11,571 nt of DNA from UHGV virus genome UHGV-0116702. One strand, given 5' to 3'. The position numbers were made by a program, and so were the translations under genes. This stretch comes from a virus. Under the pieces are notes generated by a model that worked only from the letters and a program-made list of their open reading frames with translations, was not told the DNA's origin and searched no databases. This document shows, one piece after another, positions 2,390-11,450 of the stretch; the stretch's first letter is position 1; every line of letters starts with the position of its first letter.

Positions 2390-2428
2390 AATTCTCATAT
2401 AGAGCACTGATTACGAGAATGTTAAAGA

Positions 2429-2462
2429 GGCGATTTCCCCTTTCTGGGGTTATTCGCTTTTT
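2429..2462 (+). terminator. Candidate intrinsic terminator downstream of the methyltransferase gene
   Basis: GGCGATTTCCCCTTTCTGGGGTTATTCGC: nested stems GCGA/TCGC and CCCC/GGGG, followed by TTTTT at 2458-2462. Confidence 0.4.
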
Positions 2463-2597
2463 ACTGGAAGGGTTATTTTACAGAGGTTTTTCAAACCCCC
2501 TCAATAATAGAAACGAGCAACAAACGAAGAGCGAGAAATAAAATATTGAGACTGGTGAACGGGGTCTGTAAAGATTGTTTAAGGGGGCAGTTAAGAA

Positions 2598-2630
2598 GGT
2601 GGCTCTCCCTTTCTGGGGTTATCGCCTTGT
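2598..2630 (+). repeat. Second, degenerate copy of the CCTTTCTGGGGTTAT hairpin motif
   Basis: GGCTCTCCCTTTCTGGGGTTATCGCC shares an ~18-nt core with the hairpin at 2429-2462 but has a weaker T-tract (CTTGTATCTT). Confidence 0.35.
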
Positions 2631-2654
2631 ATCTTAGTGAGTCCAGGAAGTTCT

Positions 2655-2835
2655 CTGTGAAGAGTCTTGTCAGTCCTTTATATTGGGTGATTACAACTCA
2701 TTGAAAAATAAGTGTTTTTAGAATTTACTGTTAAGGTTACAGAGTTAACTGTGAAGAGACTTGTCAGTTCTCTATATATGGCTAATTACAACTAATTGAA
2801 AAATAAGAACTTTTAGAAATTACTGTCAGAGAGGT
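2655..2835. repeat. Two tandem ~94-bp direct repeats (about 85% identity over ~75 bp)
   Basis: Copy 1 starts CTGTGAAGAGTCTTGTCAGTCC at 2655; copy 2 starts CTGTGAAGAGACTTGTCAGTTC at 2749. Both contain ATTACAACT, ATTGAAAAATAAG and TTTTAGAA-TTACTGT. The CTGTGAAGAG head also occurs at 1403-1412 and in variant form at 286-295 and 1468-1477. Confidence 0.6.
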
Positions 2836-2946
2836 GAATACTTGATAGATACAGCTTTCCGGTTCTGTCAAGCTATTTTTTCATAGATAGCACAAAATGC
2901 TAAAGATACCCCTATACCATCTCGTACAGGGGATTTTGGAGGGAGT

Positions 2947-3123
2947 TTAACGGGGGTCTGTGTGGTCATTATCCTTAAGGTCAAGCGTCCATGTATGACC
3001 GAACAGTTTAAAGACAACAAGCACTCTGACAAGGACGTAACGAAGTAGCAGACCTGCAATAAGTCCAATACCTCCACCAGCCCATACATCAGGTGACCCC
3101 AGTTCAGGAGGGAGATTTACCAT
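2947..3123 (-). CDS. Hypothetical small membrane protein (58 aa, one predicted TM helix)
   Basis: ATG at 3123-3121 preceded by AAGGA with 6-nt spacing on the minus strand. Product MVNLPPELGSPDVWAGGGIGLIAGLLLRYVLVRVLVVFKLF... has a glycine-rich hydrophobic stretch. The track ORF 2947-3165 is the same frame extended to a TTG. Divergent from the 3421 operon. Confidence 0.3.
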   Translation of the reverse strand: MVNLPPELGSPDVWAGGGIGLIAGLLLRYVLVRVLVVFKLFGHTWTLDLKDNDHTDPR

Positions 3124-3136
3124 TAGTTTTCCTTGT

Positions 3137-3235
3137 AAGACGCTCTCAATCGCATTCTGACACAAAAAGTACCTGACCTTATGAGTTGACCTTAAGAGGC
3201 TGTTTAACTCGTTACAGAGCGATTGAAGAGGTCTG
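3137..3235. repeat. Inverted-repeat-bracketed element, copy 1 (conserved left and right arms, divergent interior)
   Basis: Left arm AGACGCTCTCAATCGCATTCT (3138-3158); right arm CTGTTTAACTCGTTACAGAGCGATTGAAGAGGTCTG (3200-3235). Arms are imperfect reverse complements sharing GCGATTGAG and GTCTG. Interior contains a doubled TGACCTTA. Confidence 0.55.
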
Positions 3236-3341
3236 TGTGCAATGCAATAACCATGTGACCACTCTCATAGCCACGCCTTTATATTTTACTCTCCCCATAG
3301 AACCATTATACCATAGATGTTAATAAATTGTTAAAAAATGC

Positions 3342-3370
3342 TTGACATTAGTCTTTGAAACTGCTAGTAT
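3342..3370 (+). promoter_or_regulatory. Candidate sigma70-type promoter for the 3421-4658 operon
   Basis: TTGACA (3342-3347), 17-nt spacer, TAGTAT (3365-3370); A/T-rich upstream tract TTAAAAAATG; about 50 nt upstream of the ATG at 3421. Confidence 0.45.
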
Positions 3371-3420
3371 TGTACATATAAGTTAACAGAGAATTAACAA
3401 TTATAAGGACTAGCTTATGA

Positions 3421-4658: not shown

Positions 4659-4692
4659 TCCGAGACTTTAAGAGAAATTAGAAAAACAGCTT

Positions 4693-4816
4693 CTCAGACG
4701 CTCTCAATCGCATTCTAACGCAAAAAACTATCTTATTTTAGGGTGGGTAATACCACTGTACAGGCTACCCCTGAAAAAGACTGTTTAGCTCGTTACAGAG
4801 CGATTGAGGAGGTCTG
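4693..4816. repeat. Inverted-repeat-bracketed element, copy 2
   Basis: Left arm CAGACGCTCTCAATCGCATTCT (4695-4716); right arm CTGTTTAGCTCGTTACAGAGCGATTGAGGAGGTCTG (4781-4816). Arms are nearly identical to copy 1 (right arm 35/37) while the interior differs in sequence and length. Ends 22 nt before the ATG at 4838. Confidence 0.55.
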
Positions 4817-4837
4817 GTAAAAAGGAGATTTTAGGAA

Positions 4838-5161
4838 ATGAACAATTACGAATTACAGATTTTCGTTGATAGCGACACCGCTATGATGATTCAGGCTTTC
4901 ACTGATGTAGGTGTTAGCATTGACTTTGACAGGCTGTTAAGGCTAATGGCTGATAACTCAGAAACAATTGAAGATTTTATTCAGTCGGTGGAGTTTAACG
5001 AGCCTCGAATGATGCTACCAATTAAAGACAGCAACATGAAAAGATTGGTTATCGAGCAAACGAACAAATTCAGCATTAGCCCTGAAAGATATCTCAAGGC
5101 AGCTATAGCAATTTTGTACGCTGACAATATTCTGGTGACGGATTCTGTGAGGATTCACTAA
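4838..5161 (+). CDS. Hypothetical protein (107 aa)
   Basis: ATG 9 nt after AAAAAGGAG SD; no recognisable motif. Confidence 0.6.
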   Translation: MNNYELQIFVDSDTAMMIQAFTDVGVSIDFDRLLRLMADNSETIEDFIQSVEFNEPRMMLPIKDSNMKRLVIEQTNKFSISPERYLKAAIAILYADNILVTDSVRIH

Positions 5162-5238
5162 TGGGTTTAATAATTGCTTGGGCGTTGCTTGGCTTATTTG
5201 TTGGTTGCTGGGTAGGTAACACAGTAAATAAGAATTGA
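5161..5238 (+). CDS. Candidate 25-aa hydrophobic microprotein (MGLIIAWALLGLFVGCWVGNTVNKN)
   Basis: ATG overlaps the stop of the 107-aa gene (TAATG). Sequence is almost entirely one TM-like helix with a polar C-terminus. Too short for the ORF track; support is overlap geometry and composition only. Confidence 0.3.
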   Translation: MGLIIAWALLGLFVGCWVGNTVNKN

Positions 5239-5262
5239 TGTTACCAATCTGTTAAAAAGCTG

Positions 5263-5291
5263 TTGACAAATAACCTTGAGCATGACATAAT
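5263..5291 (+). promoter_or_regulatory. Candidate sigma70-type promoter
   Basis: TTGACA (5263-5268), 17-nt spacer, CATAAT (5286-5291). The track's 67-aa ORF 5263-5466 begins inside this -35 hexamer. Confidence 0.4.
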
Positions 5292-5481
5292 TGTATATAT
5301 GAGGATAGTCTTCTATCCGAAGTCTATGAGGAGAGCAATTCTCTCTTATTTTCTTTCAATAATCCGATGGATGGATATTCTGAGTTGGAAAGGTGCAATG
5401 CTTTTCGTCATGGCCTTTCAGTTTAGTCTGAGAGGCTATCTCAAAAAGTGCTTAATCATTCATTGAACCCTTTACAGCTTT

Positions 5482-5510
5482 GCCCTAACTCATGATTAGG
5501 GCTTTCTTTA
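5482..5510 (+). terminator. Candidate intrinsic terminator
   Basis: GCCCTAA-CTCATGA-TTAGGGC perfect 7-bp stem followed by TTTCTTTA. Confidence 0.45.
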
Positions 5511-5579
5511 AGAGTTTTTAAACAGAGCTTTTAAAGAAAGTTTTTCCTGAAACTTCGTTAACGTTAAAGCAAACCTTCA

Positions 5580-5613
5580 AAGCCCTTCACAGATTATGTT
5601 TAGGGCTTTTCTT
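5580..5613 (+). terminator. Second candidate terminator hairpin (related stem)
   Basis: AAGCCCT - 15-nt loop - AGGGCTT followed by TTTCTT; shares the AGGGCTTT(T)CTT tail with the hairpin at 5482-5510. Confidence 0.4.
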
Positions 5614-5708
5614 AATAGAGCATCTTTAATAAATCGTTAAGTCATCTTCTAAGTGTATTGGCGTTGAAGGTGCTCTATTAAGAAATAACCACTTAGAGGA
5701 AAATTATA

Positions 5709-6419
5709 ATGACAAACGATTTATATATTAACGGTAAAAAGGTTGATAGCTTCGGTGACTGGTCGCCACAGACTGAACATCCAGCTATCACTATCCAGCG
5801 TAAAGAACATGATGAAAGAATTGCACTTGAGCAAGAAATCCGAATGTCACCAAAGGTAATTACCTTTGTAGCTCCTGAGCCTCAAGAGATGCCTGATATT
5901 TGCAAAACTCAAGCATTACTTGAGCTTGAGCGTGAATATTACCCACTGCTGAAAGCACAAAGAATTAAACTTGATATTGCTTACGACAATGTGAAGAACT
6001 TTGAAGAGACTGAAAAGCCAACTGATTTTGATATTGAAGTGGAAATTAGACAAAACCCATTCGTATATTACTCAGTTGAGGATAATGATGGTTTTGGTAC
6101 AGCAAGAGAGAATATCTCAAAAGTTCTTCAAAACATCCCTGAAGGATTCCGTTTAATTGATGTTAGACCAGCTTCACGCGGTACAGGTTCATATATTTTA
6201 CTGTCTGATAAAACAGATGAAGAGATTTGTCAGTTAGCTGAAAAGAATCTACTTGAGCGTCATAGCAAAAAATTAAACAGATTTAAGCAAGAACTTGCTA
6301 ACCAGCTTCAGGCTATGAAAGACCTTATTTCTGCATATGAAACGCAGAAGAAGGTTGCTATGCAGGCTGATATTGAGCAGTTAGTGAAGATTTCTCAGAA
6401 ATACGCAAAGGCACTTTGA
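5709..6419 (+). CDS. Hypothetical protein (236 aa), acidic with helical C-terminal region
   Basis: ATG about 10 nt after AGAGGA SD; long uninterrupted ORF; no family recognised by eye. Confidence 0.65.
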   Translation: MTNDLYINGKKVDSFGDWSPQTEHPAITIQRKEHDERIALEQEIRMSPKVITFVAPEPQEMPDICKTQALLELEREYYPLLKAQRIKLDIAYDNVKNFEETEKPTDFDIEVEIRQNPFVYYSVEDNDGFGTARENISKVLQNIPEGFRLIDVRPASRGTGSYILLSDKTDEEICQLAEKNLLERHSKKLNRFKQELANQLQAMKDLISAYETQKKVAMQADIEQLVKISQKYAKAL

Positions 6420-6444
6420 CTATGAATTAAAAAGGAGGTGATGA

Positions 6445-6648
6445 ATGTTTGATTTAACGGAACGCTATGAACTTATTAAAGCAATTAGCGAGAGATTGAA
6501 AGAACAACCCAACAAACCAAAACGAATCAAATCATCCACCTCTAAACAAAATAACAGAATCAGAAAAATTGCTAAATGGTGTCTGGATAGATTACCAAGT
6601 GATTGTCAGATTGTCGGTGAAGATGGCAATTATTATCTGATTAGGTAA
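6445..6648 (+). CDS. Hypothetical small basic protein (67 aa)
   Basis: ATG 5 nt after AAAAAGGAGG SD; lysine/arginine-rich centre (KPKRIKSSTSKQNNRIRKIAKW). Confidence 0.55.
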   Translation: MFDLTERYELIKAISERLKEQPNKPKRIKSSTSKQNNRIRKIAKWCLDRLPSDCQIVGEDGNYYLIR

Positions 6649-6673
6649 AGAATTGGTTGGGTGAAAATCTACG

Positions 6674-6714
6674 GGAGAGATTATCGAGTGACATCGGTAG
6701 TTTCTCCTTTTTTT
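6674..6714 (+). terminator. Candidate intrinsic terminator
   Basis: GGAGAGA (6674-6680) pairs with TTTCTCC (6701-6707) with one G-U pair, then T7 (6708-6714). The 20-nt loop is long, so confidence is moderate. Confidence 0.4.
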
Positions 6715-6736
6715 GTATGTGTGCTACATGAAATCT

Positions 6737-6787
6737 GTAAAGCTAATATCCACACTGAAAAATAGAATTTACGTAGCTCACGCTTAA
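6737..6787 (+). repeat. Direct repeat A (51 bp, 38-bp perfect core) immediately upstream of the tape-measure gene
   Basis: GTAAAGCTAATATCCACACTGAAAAATAGAATTTACGTAGCTCACGCTTAA. Core 6750-6787 is identical to 9024-9061. Contains a -10-like TAGAAT with no good -35. Confidence 0.8.
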
Positions 6788-6804: not shown

Positions 6805-8985
6805 ATGAGCAAATTCACAGTTGATAGTTTTATCGTTGAACTAGGCTTCAATGAAAACGTTATTAAGGGCTTGCAAAGAGTTGAAAAGGCAGCTTTGCAG
6901 TCAGCACAAAGAATTGAACGTAATTTGAATAGAGCGTTTAAGGTCGATACCAAGCAACTTGACAGCAACCTGACAAGTTCTTTAGGGCAACTTGAAAGGA
7001 AGTTTAATAAGACCTTTGACAAGATTGAACAGAGAGCAAGAAATACTAAAGCTTTCCAGTTTACCACCAGATTTAATGACACTGTTAATCCTCCAAAACA
7101 ACCGAGACAGCCACGAATTAGCGGCAACAGAGCAATCACAGCAGCGCATAGCGTGAATATGTCTAAGCTTGGTGATATTAATCCGCTGATGGCTAAAATG
7201 TTTAAAGCACAGTATTACAGCTTAAGCGGTAAGGCTGGTAATATTGGAAGTGAAAAGTTTAACGCTGAACTTGCAAAATTAAATCAATCTCTTCGTGAAA
7301 CGTTGAATAAACTCAGGTCACAGACAAAGACCACCAGCATTAACAATACAAGCGACGCATTTAATAATCTTGCAAGCAATGCAATCAAGTTATCTGGTGC
7401 ATTTTACTCTGTGATGGGTGCTCTTAACGCTTACAAGGCCATTATGAATGCAGGTCTTAAACGAGATTCCGCACAGAGAGCCGCTAAGTTTGTACTTGGT
7501 GATAAAGCATCTGAAGCTGAGGTATTTATTCGAAATTTAGCAGACAAGACAGGTCTTAATATCTCTGAAGGGCTATCAAGCTACGCTAAGTTTGCAGCAG
7601 GTGCTCAGGGTTCTATGTCACAGGAACAGACACAGGAGCTATTTGGTAATGCAACGGCTATGAGTCGCTTAATGGGGCTTTCTAACGATGAGCTAAACGG
7701 CATTTTGAAAGCATTTGAGCAGATGGCGAGCAAGGGCAAGATTCAGGCTGAAGAGCTTCGTGGACAGTTAGGTGACCGTATGGCTGGTGCATTTAAGCTA
7801 TTCGCTGAAGCATTGGGTATGACTGCTACAGAGCTTGATAAAGCGATGAAAGACGGGAAGATTTTAAGTAGTGATACTCTCCCTAAAGTCGCTAAACAGA
7901 TGGGCTTGATGATTGATAAAGCGGGTGGCTGGGCTGAAGTCGCTAAGAGCACTCAGACAGCTTTAGGGAAACTGGCTAACAACTGGGATGATACGATGGT
8001 GAAAATCTTCTCAGGTTCACAGGATGAGCTAAACGGCTTCTTATCCAGCCTGAGTAACCTGCTTAGTGAAATGGGGATGAGTTCATCTATCGCTGGTGAT
8101 GCTATCGGTGGACTTATCGACATGCTTAAAGCTGGTGTGGATGACATCCGTATCTTTAACAATCACCTTGAAGGCTGGATTCTACAGACTAAGAAGTTCT
8201 ATTACAGCCTTGATGACACTAAACGAAAACTACTTGATGAAGTCGGTGATGGTTTTATCAACTTCGTCAAAGGTCTTGCTATAGCGTTATCTGCAAAGAC
8301 ACTATTCAGTGCTGCTACAGGGGTTATAAACCTGACAAGAGCAATCACAACGTTAGGTACAAGAGCTAATCAGGTTGCTGGTCAGGTAGCTACTGGTAAA
8401 GGTGGTGGAAAACTGAAAGGTGTAGCTGGTGGTGTAGGTAGTGCTCTTGCAATTGGTTATGCTGATGACGGTTATGAAACAGCGTTAGCATTAGCTTCAA
8501 TGATTCCACAAATCAGAGGCGTCACTCTTGGTTTATATGCATTGAAGAAAGCACTGGATTTTATGAATCAGGAAGTAGTCAAAAACGCTAATATGCATCC
8601 ATCTGGGGTAGGTGTGGGTAGTGACTTTAATCCCGTGTATTCTGGTGACCCTAATAAACCGAATATGATTAACGAAGGATGGGGTAGAATTTTTAGTTCA
8701 ATGGGTGAATTGTTTAACAATGCCACAATGAATATTGCAAGATTCAATCATCCAGAGTTAAACAACATTAAGCAAGATTCAGCATTAACGAGTGCAGATA
8801 TTCAGAGTCTGAGGGATGAAATCTCTGCTTTAAGTAAGCGTATTCAGGAGCCTGTGAAAGTTTCCTTGGGTGGTGAAGTTGCCATTAAACCAGATGAAAC
8901 CAGCTTTATGACCTTTAGCAGTAATATCTACGACCAATATGCAGAAGCTACGCTATTAAGTTCATCATTCCCAGAAGATGATTGA
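6805..8985 (+). CDS. Phage tail tape-measure-domain protein (726 aa)
   Basis: N-terminal coiled-coil-like segment, then LNGILKAFEQMASKGKIQAEELRGQLGDRMAGAFKLFAEALGMTATELDKAMKDGKILSSDTLPKVAKQMG, which matches the conserved tape-measure core. Downstream there are glycine-rich hydrophobic stretches (ATGKGGGKLKGVAGGVGSALAIGYA). SD AAGAGG is about 13 nt upstream. Confidence 0.7.
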   Translation: MSKFTVDSFIVELGFNENVIKGLQRVEKAALQSAQRIERNLNRAFKVDTKQLDSNLTSSLGQLERKFNKTFDKIEQRARNTKAFQFTTRFNDTVNPPKQPRQPRISGNRAITAAHSVNMSKLGDINPLMAKMFKAQYYSLSGKAGNIGSEKFNAELAKLNQSLRETLNKLRSQTKTTSINNTSDAFNNLASNAIKLSGAFYSVMGALNAYKAIMNAGLKRDSAQRAAKFVLGDKASEAEVFIRNLADKTGLNISEGLSSYAKFAAGAQGSMSQEQTQELFGNATAMSRLMGLSNDELNGILKAFEQMASKGKIQAEELRGQLGDRMAGAFKLFAEALGMTATELDKAMKDGKILSSDTLPKVAKQMGLMIDKAGGWAEVAKSTQTALGKLANNWDDTMVKIFSGSQDELNGFLSSLSNLLSEMGMSSSIAGDAIGGLIDMLKAGVDDIRIFNNHLEGWILQTKKFYYSLDDTKRKLLDEVGDGFINFVKGLAIALSAKTLFSAATGVINLTRAITTLGTRANQVAGQVATGKGGGKLKGVAGGVGSALAIGYADDGYETALALASMIPQIRGVTLGLYALKKALDFMNQEVVKNANMHPSGVGVGSDFNPVYSGDPNKPNMINEGWGRIFSSMGELFNNATMNIARFNHPELNNIKQDSALTSADIQSLRDEISALSKRIQEPVKVSLGGEVAIKPDETSFMTFSSNIYDQYAEATLLSSSFPEDD

Positions 8986-9010
8986 TTTAACGGTGTTCTA
9001 CGTGAATAAA

Positions 9011-9061
9011 GCAAAGTTAATACCCACACTGAAAAATAGAATTTACGTAGCTCACGCTTAA
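9011..9061 (+). repeat. Direct repeat B (copy of repeat A) immediately downstream of the tape-measure gene
   Basis: GCAAAGTTAATACCCACACTGAAAAATAGAATTTACGTAGCTCACGCTTAA; 48/51 identical to 6737-6787, offset 2274 bp; lies about 80 nt upstream of the ATG at 9142. Confidence 0.8.
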
Positions 9062-9141
9062 CAGAGAAAATACTTATATATCAAAGGCTTGGTTAAAAAT
9101 GATTAAAATACACTAAGCCTTTGAAATCAAAGGAGAATTTA

Positions 9142-9930
9142 ATGATTTTTAGCAATCAAATCCGCTACAGTGGCAAAGATGGCGTTTACTTCCACTTAAG
9201 AGATAATGTAGATGCCTTCTTAACCTTATCAGCAACTGAGAACATGGAATTTGATAGCCCTATGCAGGTGACTACACAGAACATGCAATCAGGGCAAACC
9301 GTCACAGATAATGTGCAAAGAGCACCCAGAACAATCACTATTAGCGGTGTCGTTGTAGTTGGCTATGAAGGGAGCTTATTATTAACTCGTCAGGGTCAAT
9401 TAGTAGAGAACTTCATCGACACTCTTGAAAACTGGCGTGACCAGAAACAAATTATTTCGGTCATCTGTAAAGACGGAATTAAAATTGATGATTCCATTAT
9501 CACAAGTTTTAAAGCCTCTAAAGATGTTGGAATTTCAAACGGATTAAGAATCCAACTAACTTTTCAGGAAATTAACTTCAGAGCTGTTGTGGGGCAGACT
9601 GATATCTCGGCTGCAACTGGAAAAGCCGCGACTACGAACGATGGTGGTGTGACCAGTAAGAAGAATGCAGGTAACGTGACCACTGAACGCAATAACGCGC
9701 CTATGCTATCGTGCAAAGAGCTAATGAGTATTAGCGATGTATCCGGTTACGCTCCAGCTATCAGAAATGATATTCTCGATGCTCAGATTAAGTGTAATAA
9801 GGCTTGGAAGCTGGACTATTCAGACTTAACAGAAGCTGAAAAAACCAACGTCACCAATGCTAATAGTAACGCTGGTCGGGTAGCTTCAAAGCTTAAAAAG
9901 TACTCAGTGAACCCTCACAAAAAATACTAA
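9142..9930 (+). CDS. Hypothetical protein (262 aa); possibly tail-associated on positional grounds only
   Basis: ATG 6 nt after AAGGAG SD; the track ORF from 9121 is the same frame from an upstream TTG. Sits directly after the tape-measure gene, where siphophages usually encode the distal tail protein, but I see no diagnostic motif. Confidence 0.55.
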
Positions 9931-11450
9931 ATCTCTACTACATCAACATCTATTAAACCCCTCTCAGTGACTTCAGAAAGCGACTGTATAGCCTCTGTAA
10001 CGTCCTCTGAGGGGTTTTCTGTTATTGATAAGGTGATTGACTTACCATTGTGAAAAGTTACTTTACAGCGACGTTTAGCAGTATTTAAAACGACCTCTTT
10101 AACAGCACTTTTGATTATCAGTTGTGCTTCAATTCTCCCCGCCTTTGTAGTCAAGTCACAATCAGACAAACACCCCACATCAATAGATTTAAGGCGTTGT
10201 GTCTCCTTCTCGATATCCGCATCAACCTGTGATAGCTCACCTTTTAACTGCTTTAGTTTGATGGTAATAGCTGACAAATCTTCAATTTCAAGTGATAGCT
10301 GTACCAGCTTTTCAATATTGCTTGAGATGTGTTCACGGTGTAGCCTCAACATATCTATGGTATTCGTCGTATCGCTATCAAATCGGTCAAGACGAGATAG
10401 CAGAGTAAGCAATGTACCATCGGTTTGCTTACGTGAAAGTCCTTTAGCACTACAACGGTTTTCATTACGAAGAGGACAACGATAAATCCCGTTTCTTGTA
10501 TCACTAAAGCCTGTGATAATCAGAGCATGACCACATTCAGAACAACGGATAACACCTTTAAAGAGATTCACACTCAATGGTTTATCTGAAACAGACCTCT
10601 TTCCATAACGAGAATGTGATAGTTGTTGAACTTTGTAGAATGTTGTTTCATCTATAATTGCAGGATAATAACCAGCTATCTCCTCACAGCCTTTAGGTGT
10701 GAAGTAACCAATTACAGAGCGATTCTTCAGAAGGTCTTGTACTGAGGTTTGACCAAACTTACCAGCTTTATATTGGTTAAGCGTCTGGTGACCTTCATCA
10801 TTAAGAGTCCTGACAATCGCCCAGATAGATTTGCCCTCTAACCGTAGCTGAAAGCACCTCTTCACAGTTTCTACCTTCTCAGGTATTACAGAGAAGCTTT
10901 TACGGTCATCATTCAGCCTTAACCATGCAGGACAACGCCTAGAAATCTTGATACCAGCTTTAGCAGCTTCTTTCTTTGCATCCCATGCAGCTTGTATACG
11001 CTCAGCCTTACGTAATGATTCCTCATGCGCCCTTTGCATTATCAGAATGCTTTTAATCAGGGATAACGGGTCTCTTAAGCTTTCCTTTGTGTAATGTTCA
11101 CCATCGGACAAGGTGACTACATCTACACCAGAGCGAAGAATGTTTCGTAATAGCTCACTTGCTCGGTCTACGGCCTGACGTGACAAACGGTCTAAACTCT
11201 CGATTAGTAGTGTATCACCAGCTTTAACAAGCCCTTTCTCGATAGCGGTTAAAAAGTCACCTAAGCCACCTTTCAAGTGCTTACCAGTGAATCCACTCAC
11301 ACCTAAATCACGGAAGGATAAATCTTGGTCAAGGTAGTACTCAGGTTGAGCCTTAAGCCAGTCATTAACCATCTTAGACTGTCTGCGTAGTGAATCACCT
11401 CGGGATTGCTTCTCAGATGAAAACCTGATGTAAGAAATGGCACGTTTCAT
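9927..11450 (-). CDS. Large serine recombinase (integrase, 507 aa)
   Basis: N-terminal resolvase-type catalytic domain with the nucleophile motif YIRFSSEKQ and arginines in DRLSR; central recombinase region; Cys-rich zinc ribbon CSECGH...[11 protein letters not shown]; C-terminal coiled-coil-like segment. GAGGTG SD 4 nt before the ATG. Confidence 0.9.

Follow-up and report, generated by a model that had tools for sequence, protein, structure and literature searches.

The stretch of DNA analyzed here, UHGV virus genome UHGV-0116702 (11,571 nt; hereafter the window), is a complete integrative island of ~11.5 kb located in the E. coli gene yecE, and it is identical to positions 4293-15863 of a metagenome contig segment (L006). 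Within this island, the intergenic region 5162-5708 lies between a 107-aa gene (4838-5161) and a 236-aa gene (5709-6419); both genes, and all features described below, are on the plus strand unless stated otherwise. From the letters of the window alone, the original prediction had placed in this region a promoter followed about 190 nt later by two related terminator hairpins, and had proposed either a small RNA (sRNA) of about 200 nt or a leaderless messenger RNA (mRNA) with a 56-aa open reading frame (ORF). When used as a query, 5162-5708 matched 465 of 5426 complete E. coli genomes, and related copies of the element were found in Salmonella, Citrobacter, and E. albertii. None of the 40 records listed has a RefSeq annotation under the intergenic match, and no DNA similarity to 4800-6500 was detected in 50,697 phage records in the near or distant search modes. 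A comparative set of 34 distinct intergenic sequences from E. coli, E. albertii, Salmonella, and Citrobacter was assembled from exact-protein look-ups, one genome scan, two IMG/VR motif scans, and RefSeq hits. The features described below are taken to matter because they are conserved across these 34 homologous copies.

The predicted TTGACA-17-CATAAT promoter was borne out. It reads at 5263-5291, with the -35 box TTGACA at 5263-5268, a 17-bp spacer, an extended -10 TG at 5283-5284, and the -10 box CATAAT at 5286-5291, and it ranked first in a consensus scan of the window as the best sigma-70 match (11/12, with the TG). Taken together, promoter-like sites are no more frequent than by chance (24 against an expectation of 28.4), but the window has two sites of 11/12 with an extended -10 TG, and only 2.5% of 200 dinucleotide shuffles contained one or more of this kind. 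The position of the promoter is kept in all homologues. The -35 box and most of the spacer are invariant across the variants, and the -10 box varies (CATAAT, GAAGAT, TAAGAT, or GATGAT) with A2 and T6 kept. Immediately upstream, an A/T-rich block resembling an UP element (GTTACCAATCTGTTAAAAAGCTG, 5240-5262) is nearly invariant in the 34 variants; over the whole block 5240-5291, the mean identity to the window is 0.96 and 33 of 52 columns are invariant. The usual spacing of 6-8 nt from the -10 box would place the transcription start at 5297-5299. An AAAAG-N-TGTTGACA arrangement is common to this promoter and to early-promoter-like sites of the Felixounavirus HMD-P10. A promoter-like site on the minus strand (5731-5703) was discarded, as its -10 box is the A/T spacer between a Shine-Dalgarno (SD) sequence and an ATG and is not conserved.

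Beyond the promoter, a consensus fold of 23 distinct core sequences comprises three helices, H1, H2, and H3. H1 (5388-5394/5400-5406) carries an invariant GCAAU loop, and its 7 pairs are 100% paired, 2 of them with a compensatory change. H2 is a 12-bp hairpin (5410-5421/5428-5439) in which 6 of the 12 pairs are changed on both sides and 98.2% of the cells are paired, with many G-U intermediates; H3 is short and weak. In total, these helices contain 23 base pairs, of which 8 show double changes, and 98.7% of the cells are standard pairs. The observed value was not reached on any of five measures by any of 500 column shuffles, a count that is not to be read as a probability since the sequences are related, but with which both the number of independent pair types and a control with partners slid by 1-3 columns (pairing falls to 32-58%) agree. 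The H1 block (5387-5407) has a mean identity of 0.97 and is, together with the promoter block (0.96), the most conserved part of the region, the adjacent peptide ORF (0.85) being below both. Closer to the predicted start, a hairpin named P1 (5329-5347), with purines predominating in its 5' arm and pyrimidines in its 3' arm, folds with 6-9 bp in all 13 sequence types even where the arms differ (for example, GGAAGAG/CTCTTCC and AGAGAG/CTCTCT). A long-range pairing of the core in the minimum free energy structure of the single sequence was set aside as less supported than the three-helix consensus.

Many of the pairs alternate between G-C and G-U, as at one pair where the two forms number 12 and 10. 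Since a G-U pair corresponds to an A-C mismatch on the other strand, this pattern points to an RNA transcribed from the plus strand rather than to duplex DNA or to the opposite strand. That the region encodes a structured plus-strand RNA is well supported by these alignments. The same evidence bears on the idea that the region acts as DNA, as a replication origin, a packaging site, or a set of protein-binding palindromes, an idea that its length, its non-coding nature, and its several inverted repeats might well suggest for part of a mobile element. However, the helices covary, and their many G-U pairs would be mismatches in duplex DNA as well as on the other strand; in addition, there are no iterons, and a conserved near-consensus promoter points into the region. 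A purely DNA-level function is thus very unlikely in our view.

No match was obtained when the whole window was searched against Rfam 15 with E up to 1. With E up to 10 over 5240-5720, the best candidate was His_leader, with 22 bits where the gathering score is 49, and the rest were also far below threshold. By sequence and structure, the element is a new RNA family. A covariance model of the core, searched for in phage and unrelated loci, gave one candidate of 26 bits on the minus strand, which was rejected as a homologue because it is a generic terminator-like hairpin without the H1 loop.

The second option of the original prediction, a leaderless small ORF, did not hold. The ATG is present at 5299-5301, and it opens a frame of 55 codons plus stop (5299-5466), not 56. 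A 5'-proximal ATG is found in 14 of 31 variants and is absent in 17; a frame of 55-57 codons is kept in only four of the 31, the others stopping after 11-46 codons because indels of 1, 9, or more bases in 5347-5386 shift it. The frame has no family match in Pfam, PHROG, or NCBIfam and no RefSeq annotation, and it was rejected as a gene. A leaderless mRNA for a 55-aa protein, to which the position of the ATG at the predicted 5' end had pointed, therefore seems extremely unlikely. In the suggested comparison of structure with codons in homologues, the helices covary and the frame is not kept.

The ATG lies in a facultative 27-nt module (5299-5325; hairpin GGATAG-TCTT-CTATCC at 5303-5318) that is missing in ~60% of the variants. 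This module (GGATAG-YCTT-CTATCC) appears to be mobile between the 5' end of the leader and the 5' untranslated region (5'UTR) of the tape-measure gene located further downstream, where it is found just past a terminator in L002 (11008-11046), L005, L019, and L026; it is absent from phage HMD-P10. In diverged modules, compensatory changes preserve the hairpin (GATTGG/CTAATC in Citrobacter), and an RNA-binding factor may recognize the module.

The two predicted hairpins with a common sequence were found again: both carry TTAGGGCTTT, at 5482-5502 and 5579-5609. This sequence is part of a 23-nt repeat (D17) common to the two hairpins, the 10-mer pair alone being within chance (41 of 200 shuffles give at least 2 matches). 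The first hairpin, T1 (5482-5509), has its stem at 5482-5488/5496-5502 (GCCCTAA-7 nt-TTAGGGC) and a UUUCUUU tail. It was called by the terminator scan (-10.4 kcal/mol, z = -3.6; 7-bp stem with 4 G-C pairs) and has the features of an intrinsic (Rho-independent) terminator, namely a G+C-rich stem, a short loop, and a U tract directly after the stem. The second, T2 (5579-5613), has an 8-bp stem at 5579-5586/5602-5609 (AAAGCCCT-15 nt-AGGGCTTT) followed by UCUU (-14.0 kcal/mol, z = -4.2), with the U tract partly inside the stem. It was not called by the scan, whose limit is exceeded by its 15-nt loop (45 nt in some variants).

All variants carry one or two GCCCT...AGGGC hairpins followed by a U-rich tail. 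The unit formed by T1 and the facultative spacer between T1 and T2 (5510-5578) is absent from seven variants (L013, L026, L030, L032, L034, L038, and L040), the spacer is internally deleted in three others (L004, L010, and L015), and the T2 loop tolerates insertions of 11 or 30 nt. Such stems that are kept while their loops vary freely are the pattern expected of terminators. Both would probably be leaky, as the predicted strengths of the terminators are moderate (-10 to -21 kcal/mol) and the U tracts are interrupted. With the start predicted above, termination at T1 would give an RNA of ~205-212 nt, where ~200 nt had been proposed originally, and T2 would add a species of ~312-316 nt. The kept promoter, the helices with compensatory changes, the G-U pairs on the plus strand, and the hairpin with a U-rich tail in every variant all favor the non-coding RNA that had been proposed.

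Two variations of these hairpins are worth recording in their own right. The T1 loop (5489-5495) reads either CTCATGA or its reverse complement TCATGAG between identical stems, that is, a hairpin-loop inversion. The 30-nt insertion in the T2 loop (near 5595), found in L007, L009, L014, L015, L033, L037, L048, and L049, creates GAGGATGATTCC-ATG AAT ATC CGA ATC ACC TAT GTT TAG, which is an SD sequence followed by an ORF of eight codons, the stop of which overlaps with the T2 hairpin in its 3' arm. As translation of this ORF would prevent the formation of the T2 hairpin, these variants may use translation-coupled read-through.

Between T2 and the 236-aa gene, an inverted repeat (I5) forms a long hairpin, LH (5608-5685), with 22-nt arms at 5608-5629 and 5664-5685 (-33.9 kcal/mol, z = -6.3). 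Compensatory changes are observed in 12 of its 21 consensus pairs, across three sequence classes. Its loop contains an anti-SD sequence, TCTTCTAAGTG (5645-5655), complementary to the SD region of the 236-aa gene, CACTTAGAGGA (5690-5700), with which it can form an 11-bp duplex of -15.4 kcal/mol. This complementarity is present in 22 of 22 variants (-13 to -22 kcal/mol), and the loop changes in step with the SD region, the versions in the three classes being CTTCTAAGTG/CACTTAGAGG, CCTCTTCTAAG/CTTAGAAGAGG, and TTCACCTC/GAGGTGAA. When each loop was compared with 300 dinucleotide shuffles, at most 3 were as good in 15 of the 22 variants.

Pairing between the LH loop and the SD region makes sense only if a single RNA begins upstream of 5608 and extends into the gene. 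The scan found no promoter-like site on the plus strand between T2 and the 236-aa gene, and in the islands examined, including those with weak megablast hits, the promoter and core always occur in one piece with LH and the SD. The same leader unit is also kept in some islands where an unrelated gene replaces the 236-aa gene. Because the RNA is always joined in cis to the structure that masks the SD, we regard it as a 5' leader or attenuator in the first place, and only possibly as a trans-acting sRNA as well. The label of sRNA was therefore right as to the non-coding nature of the RNA and incomplete as to its constant association with a structure masking the ribosome-binding site of the next gene.

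A side observation on the LH loop should be mentioned here. Positions 5637-5654 are complementary, at 17 of 18 positions, to 74722-74739 of phage HMD-P10 (30722-30739 of L045), which are the first bases of a predicted early transcript just past a TTGACA/TATAAA promoter-like site. This match (blastn-short E = 0.13) may be due to chance; if real, it would be in line with a lock opened by a phage RNA.

The 236-aa gene, putatively controlled by the leader, was called in all loci and has more than 3000 homologues. The protein has no match in Pfam, PHROGs, NCBIfam, PADLOC, or PDB sequences. Its AlphaFold model is mediocre (pLDDT of 70), coiled-coil-rich, and made mostly of long helices, with no significant fold match in BFVD. 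The RefSeq name 'transposase' looks unfounded for such a protein, as no family match backs it. One could imagine that the locus is a type III toxin-antitoxin-like or abortive-infection module, with a promoter, an RNA antitoxin, and a leaky terminator ahead of a toxic 236-aa product. The order of these parts, the very tight control predicted for the downstream gene, and the phage-related setting of the island are compatible with such a module. However, 5298-5510 is devoid of tandem repeats (a weak 13-nt array of 2.5 copies is present at 5513-5545), the protein resembles no ToxN/AbiQ-type toxin in the searches above, and the same leader precedes an unrelated gene elsewhere. We consider this type of module highly improbable.

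The explanation that we favor, with slightly better than even confidence, is that 5263-5708 forms a single regulatory unit, in which a strong and constitutive sigma-70 promoter drives a 410-nt untranslated and structured 5' leader of the 236-aa gene that carries two locks, the leaky terminators and the sequestration of the SD. RNA polymerase would start near 5298, and the nascent RNA would open with the protective 5' hairpin P1 and then fold H1 and H2. Most transcripts would end at the leaky intrinsic terminators T1 or T2, so that the short and stable RNAs of ~205 and ~315 nt, corresponding to the 'sRNA' proposed originally, would be the terminated leader. The RNA that reads through would fold LH, the loop of which would pair with the SD of the 236-aa gene and block its translation. 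As long as the island stays in the chromosome, the gene would thus be held off at two levels, until it is released by antitermination and/or the opening of the loop-SD pairing. The trigger would presumably be infection by a Felix-O1-type helper phage or, alternatively, a factor of the island itself. In short, the element most likely keeps the next gene of the island off until it is needed.

Several points weigh against this explanation. The start site, the termination and its efficiency, the read-through, the off state, and the trigger are all predictions. Termination may be weak, given the large T2 loop (15-45 nt) and the U run that lies 6 nt from the stem in some single-hairpin variants. The upstream operon has no predicted terminator and may thus read into the leader, and the promoter could be repressed rather than constitutive. 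No antiterminator or releasing factor was identified among the proteins of the island or in the phage. Finally, the conservation of H1 (with its GCAAU loop) and H2 exceeds that of a plain attenuator, which suggests that the short RNA, or whatever binds it, has a function of its own.

This last point leads to the main rival, a free-standing trans-acting sRNA similar to SviR (see below), in which the RNA ended by T1 or T2 would pair with phage, island, or host mRNAs and the link with the downstream gene would be secondary. The layout resembles that of SviR, with an ORF-free intergenic site in what is here a putative satellite, one predicted start, and species close to the ~210 and ~300 nt of SviR. 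The invariant H1 loop would also suit such a role, and a 5' hairpin combined with a terminator hairpin is typical of stable sRNAs. However, duplexes of the 213-nt RNA with 12 translation-initiation regions of the island were no better than those of 100 shuffles, and a blastn-short search of the leader against phage HMD-P10 remained at chance level (best E of 0.03-0.13). Moreover, the RNA was never seen without the downstream lock, and its interrupted U tracts (UUUCUUU and UUUUCUU) are weaker than those of typical Hfq-dependent sRNAs. As a replacement for the two-lock leader, the trans-acting sRNA seems to us possible but doubtful; the two roles could coexist.

Further downstream, a strong intrinsic terminator (6673-6708; 15-bp stem, -21.1 kcal/mol, seven U) lies between a 67-aa gene, which follows the 236-aa gene, and the tape-measure gene (6805-8985), and it is conserved in related islands. 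The tail genes, that is, the tape-measure gene and the gene for a Dit-like baseplate protein (9121-9930), would thus need read-through or a promoter of their own. In this regard, a 69-nt direct repeat (D1; 87% identical) is located directly upstream of both genes (6719-6787 and 8993-9061), with an inverted partial copy at 534-563. It ends with ...CTGAAAAATAGAATTTACGTAGCTCACGCTTAA, was not found in phage HMD-P10, and is a candidate for a shared promoter or regulatory site of the tail genes.

This arrangement also bears on a cis-acting antiterminator of the HK022 put type, in which H1 and H2 would bind RNA polymerase and let it read through T1, T2, and the terminator at 6673-6708, such that the tape-measure and baseplate genes are expressed. 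Two conserved stem-loops ~90-140 nt past a strong promoter, followed by several terminators in the same direction including the strong one before the tape-measure gene, would fit this idea. On the other hand, no similarity to any described RNA was found by sequence or model, and the put sites of HK022 directly follow their promoter. Terminators conserved right after a constitutive antiterminator would also be purposeless, and each of the two tail genes is preceded by a conserved 69-nt module of its own. We view a put-type element as quite unlikely, and the two-lock leader is retained as the working explanation.

The gene content of the island links it to a particular group of phages. The baseplate protein shares 72% amino acid identity with that of ~250 Felixounavirus genomes, and 518 bases of the island (9157-9674) are 95% identical at the nucleotide level to 7837-8354 of phage HMD-P10. 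The phage homologues of the tape-measure and baseplate genes are adjacent and in the same order. These homologous tail genes tie the island to virulent myoviruses of the Felix-O1 type, and the island looks like a candidate satellite, or a tail-interfering defense island, of such phages. In the literature that could be searched, no description of the island or of a Felixounavirus satellite was found.

The halves of yecE (DUF72) flank the island in L006, L007, and L026, and related copies are inserted between ymdF and wrbA or between yciI and tonB, for at least three attachment sites. A large serine recombinase with Resolvase, Recombinase, and Zn_ribbon_recom domains (9927-11450, minus strand) is found at one end of all copies. 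The island also encodes a Dam-type methyltransferase with a helix-turn-helix (HTH) domain (1721-2389), an HNH protein, and several small genes without assigned function; a scan for tRNA and tmRNA genes found none. The idea that the island is SpLE2 of E. coli O157:H7 Sakai was wrong, as SpLE2 is a different element and yecE is intact in Sakai; transcriptomes of Sakai are therefore not applicable to the island.

Some other features of the island were noted. An unannotated 25-codon ORF (5161-5238) lies between the 107-aa gene, whose stop overlaps its ATG (TAATG), and the promoter block, and it encodes a hydrophobic peptide (MGLIIAWALLGLFVGCWVGNTVNKN). It is kept in the variants examined as 2-3 distinct hydrophobic sequences (for example, MTLVILWTALGLLCGCLIANEANRN and MELVIICFVLIGMIAGASIKV) and is likely a real small membrane protein. 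A repeated module of ~100 nt with complementary ends (GACGCTCTCAATCGC ... GCGATTGARGAGGTCTG) is found at 3132-3235, upstream of a 159-aa gene, and at 4690-4816, immediately before the 107-aa gene, with an inverted copy at 1146-1207; it may be another structured leader element. Two strong promoter-like sites stand back to back at 3305-3370, an arrangement that has the look of divergent control, namely TTAACA-18-TATAAT on the minus strand (11/12, with TG) and TTGACA-17-TAGTAT on the plus strand (10/12, with TG). On the minus strand, hairpins lie past the first of these sites (3274-3255 and 2932-2909), which may point to a second small RNA or to the gene of a small repressor. A non-coding tandem repeat of 95 nt (1.8 copies, 85% matches) occupies 2655-2826, and the first 1.7 kb of the island, as well as 2390-3420, are largely without ORFs.

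In a broader and more speculative reading, the element would be the central switch of an undescribed family of Felixounavirus-dependent satellites in Enterobacteria. A constitutive immunity RNA would terminate its own transcript and keep the first late gene translationally locked, the phage would open this lock through an antiterminating factor or through an early RNA that pairs with the anti-SD loop, and the short RNA would regulate phage or island mRNAs in trans. Such an element would be an enterobacterial counterpart of PLE and SviR combined with an RNA-based infection sensor. With all of its parts taken together, we judge this combination unlikely.

To our knowledge, P4 and PLE (SviR) are the only phage satellites whose control by RNA has been worked out in detail. 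If correct, the explanation favored here would add a new and widespread RNA element, a satellite or island leader RNA that combines transcriptional and translational locks, and would place under its control an unstudied island whose tail genes are exchanged with virulent phages of the Felix-O1 type. It could show how a satellite or a defense island senses a virulent phage. As an E. coli example whose architecture can be mutated part by part (promoter, two terminators, loop-SD lock), it would be genetically easy to test. The annotation would also benefit, as the region is now blank and the 236-aa gene is apparently mislabeled 'transposase'.

By layout, the closest known systems appear to be SviR of PLE, the lambda PR'-tR' region with 6S RNA and StxS, and the P4 immunity leader. 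In lambda (PR'-tR', 6S RNA) and in Stx phages (StxS), a strong constitutive promoter produces an RNA of ~200 nt that ends at a terminator before the late or structural genes, the expression of which needs read-through; the short Stx RNA also acts as an sRNA. The island has a similar series, with the promoter at 5263, T1 at 5482, and then the 236-aa, 67-aa, tape-measure, and baseplate genes. It differs in that no Q-type antiterminator family was found among the island proteins in library scans, and the sole -10-like pause candidate (GATAGT, 5304-5309) is in the module that most variants lack. The translational lock of the island also has no counterpart in those phages.

The immunity of the P4 satellite relies on the CI RNA, which is processed from a constitutive untranslated leader and belongs to the Rfam C4 antisense RNA family, and on premature termination. 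The control proposed here would likewise be of a satellite type in E. coli, exerted by an untranslated leader RNA and premature termination. In contrast to P4, the region has no Rfam C4 match (window with E up to 1, region with E up to 10) and no internal complementarity of the seqA/seqB/seqC type besides the loop-SD pairing, and the integrase and the type of helper are different.

SviR, the sRNA of the Vibrio cholerae PLE, has a main form of ~210 nt, the end of which is set by a Rho-independent terminator, and a longer one of ~300 nt (Dunham, Angermeyer and Seed, bioRxiv 10.1101/2022.04.08.487710). Both SviR and the RNA proposed here come from an ORF-free intergenic site, behind a single promoter, in an element with a large serine recombinase and a link to a virulent myovirus, and the ~210 and ~300 nt of SviR compare with ~205 and ~315 nt predicted for the island RNA. 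This comparison is one of layout, not of sequence. The SviR promoter is phage-induced, whereas that of the island is a near-consensus sigma-70 promoter. Moreover, inverted repeats flank SviR, which has not been described as the leader of the next gene, whereas the island RNA is always fused to the structure that masks the SD. With respect to this second lock, the island leader resembles the SD-sequestering hairpins of other 5'UTRs, such as translational operators and RNA thermometers, in that a stem-loop presents a pyrimidine-rich anti-SD sequence. It would differ from them in that a separate 22-bp hairpin carries the anti-SD in its apical loop, which must make a pseudoknot-like contact with the SD downstream.

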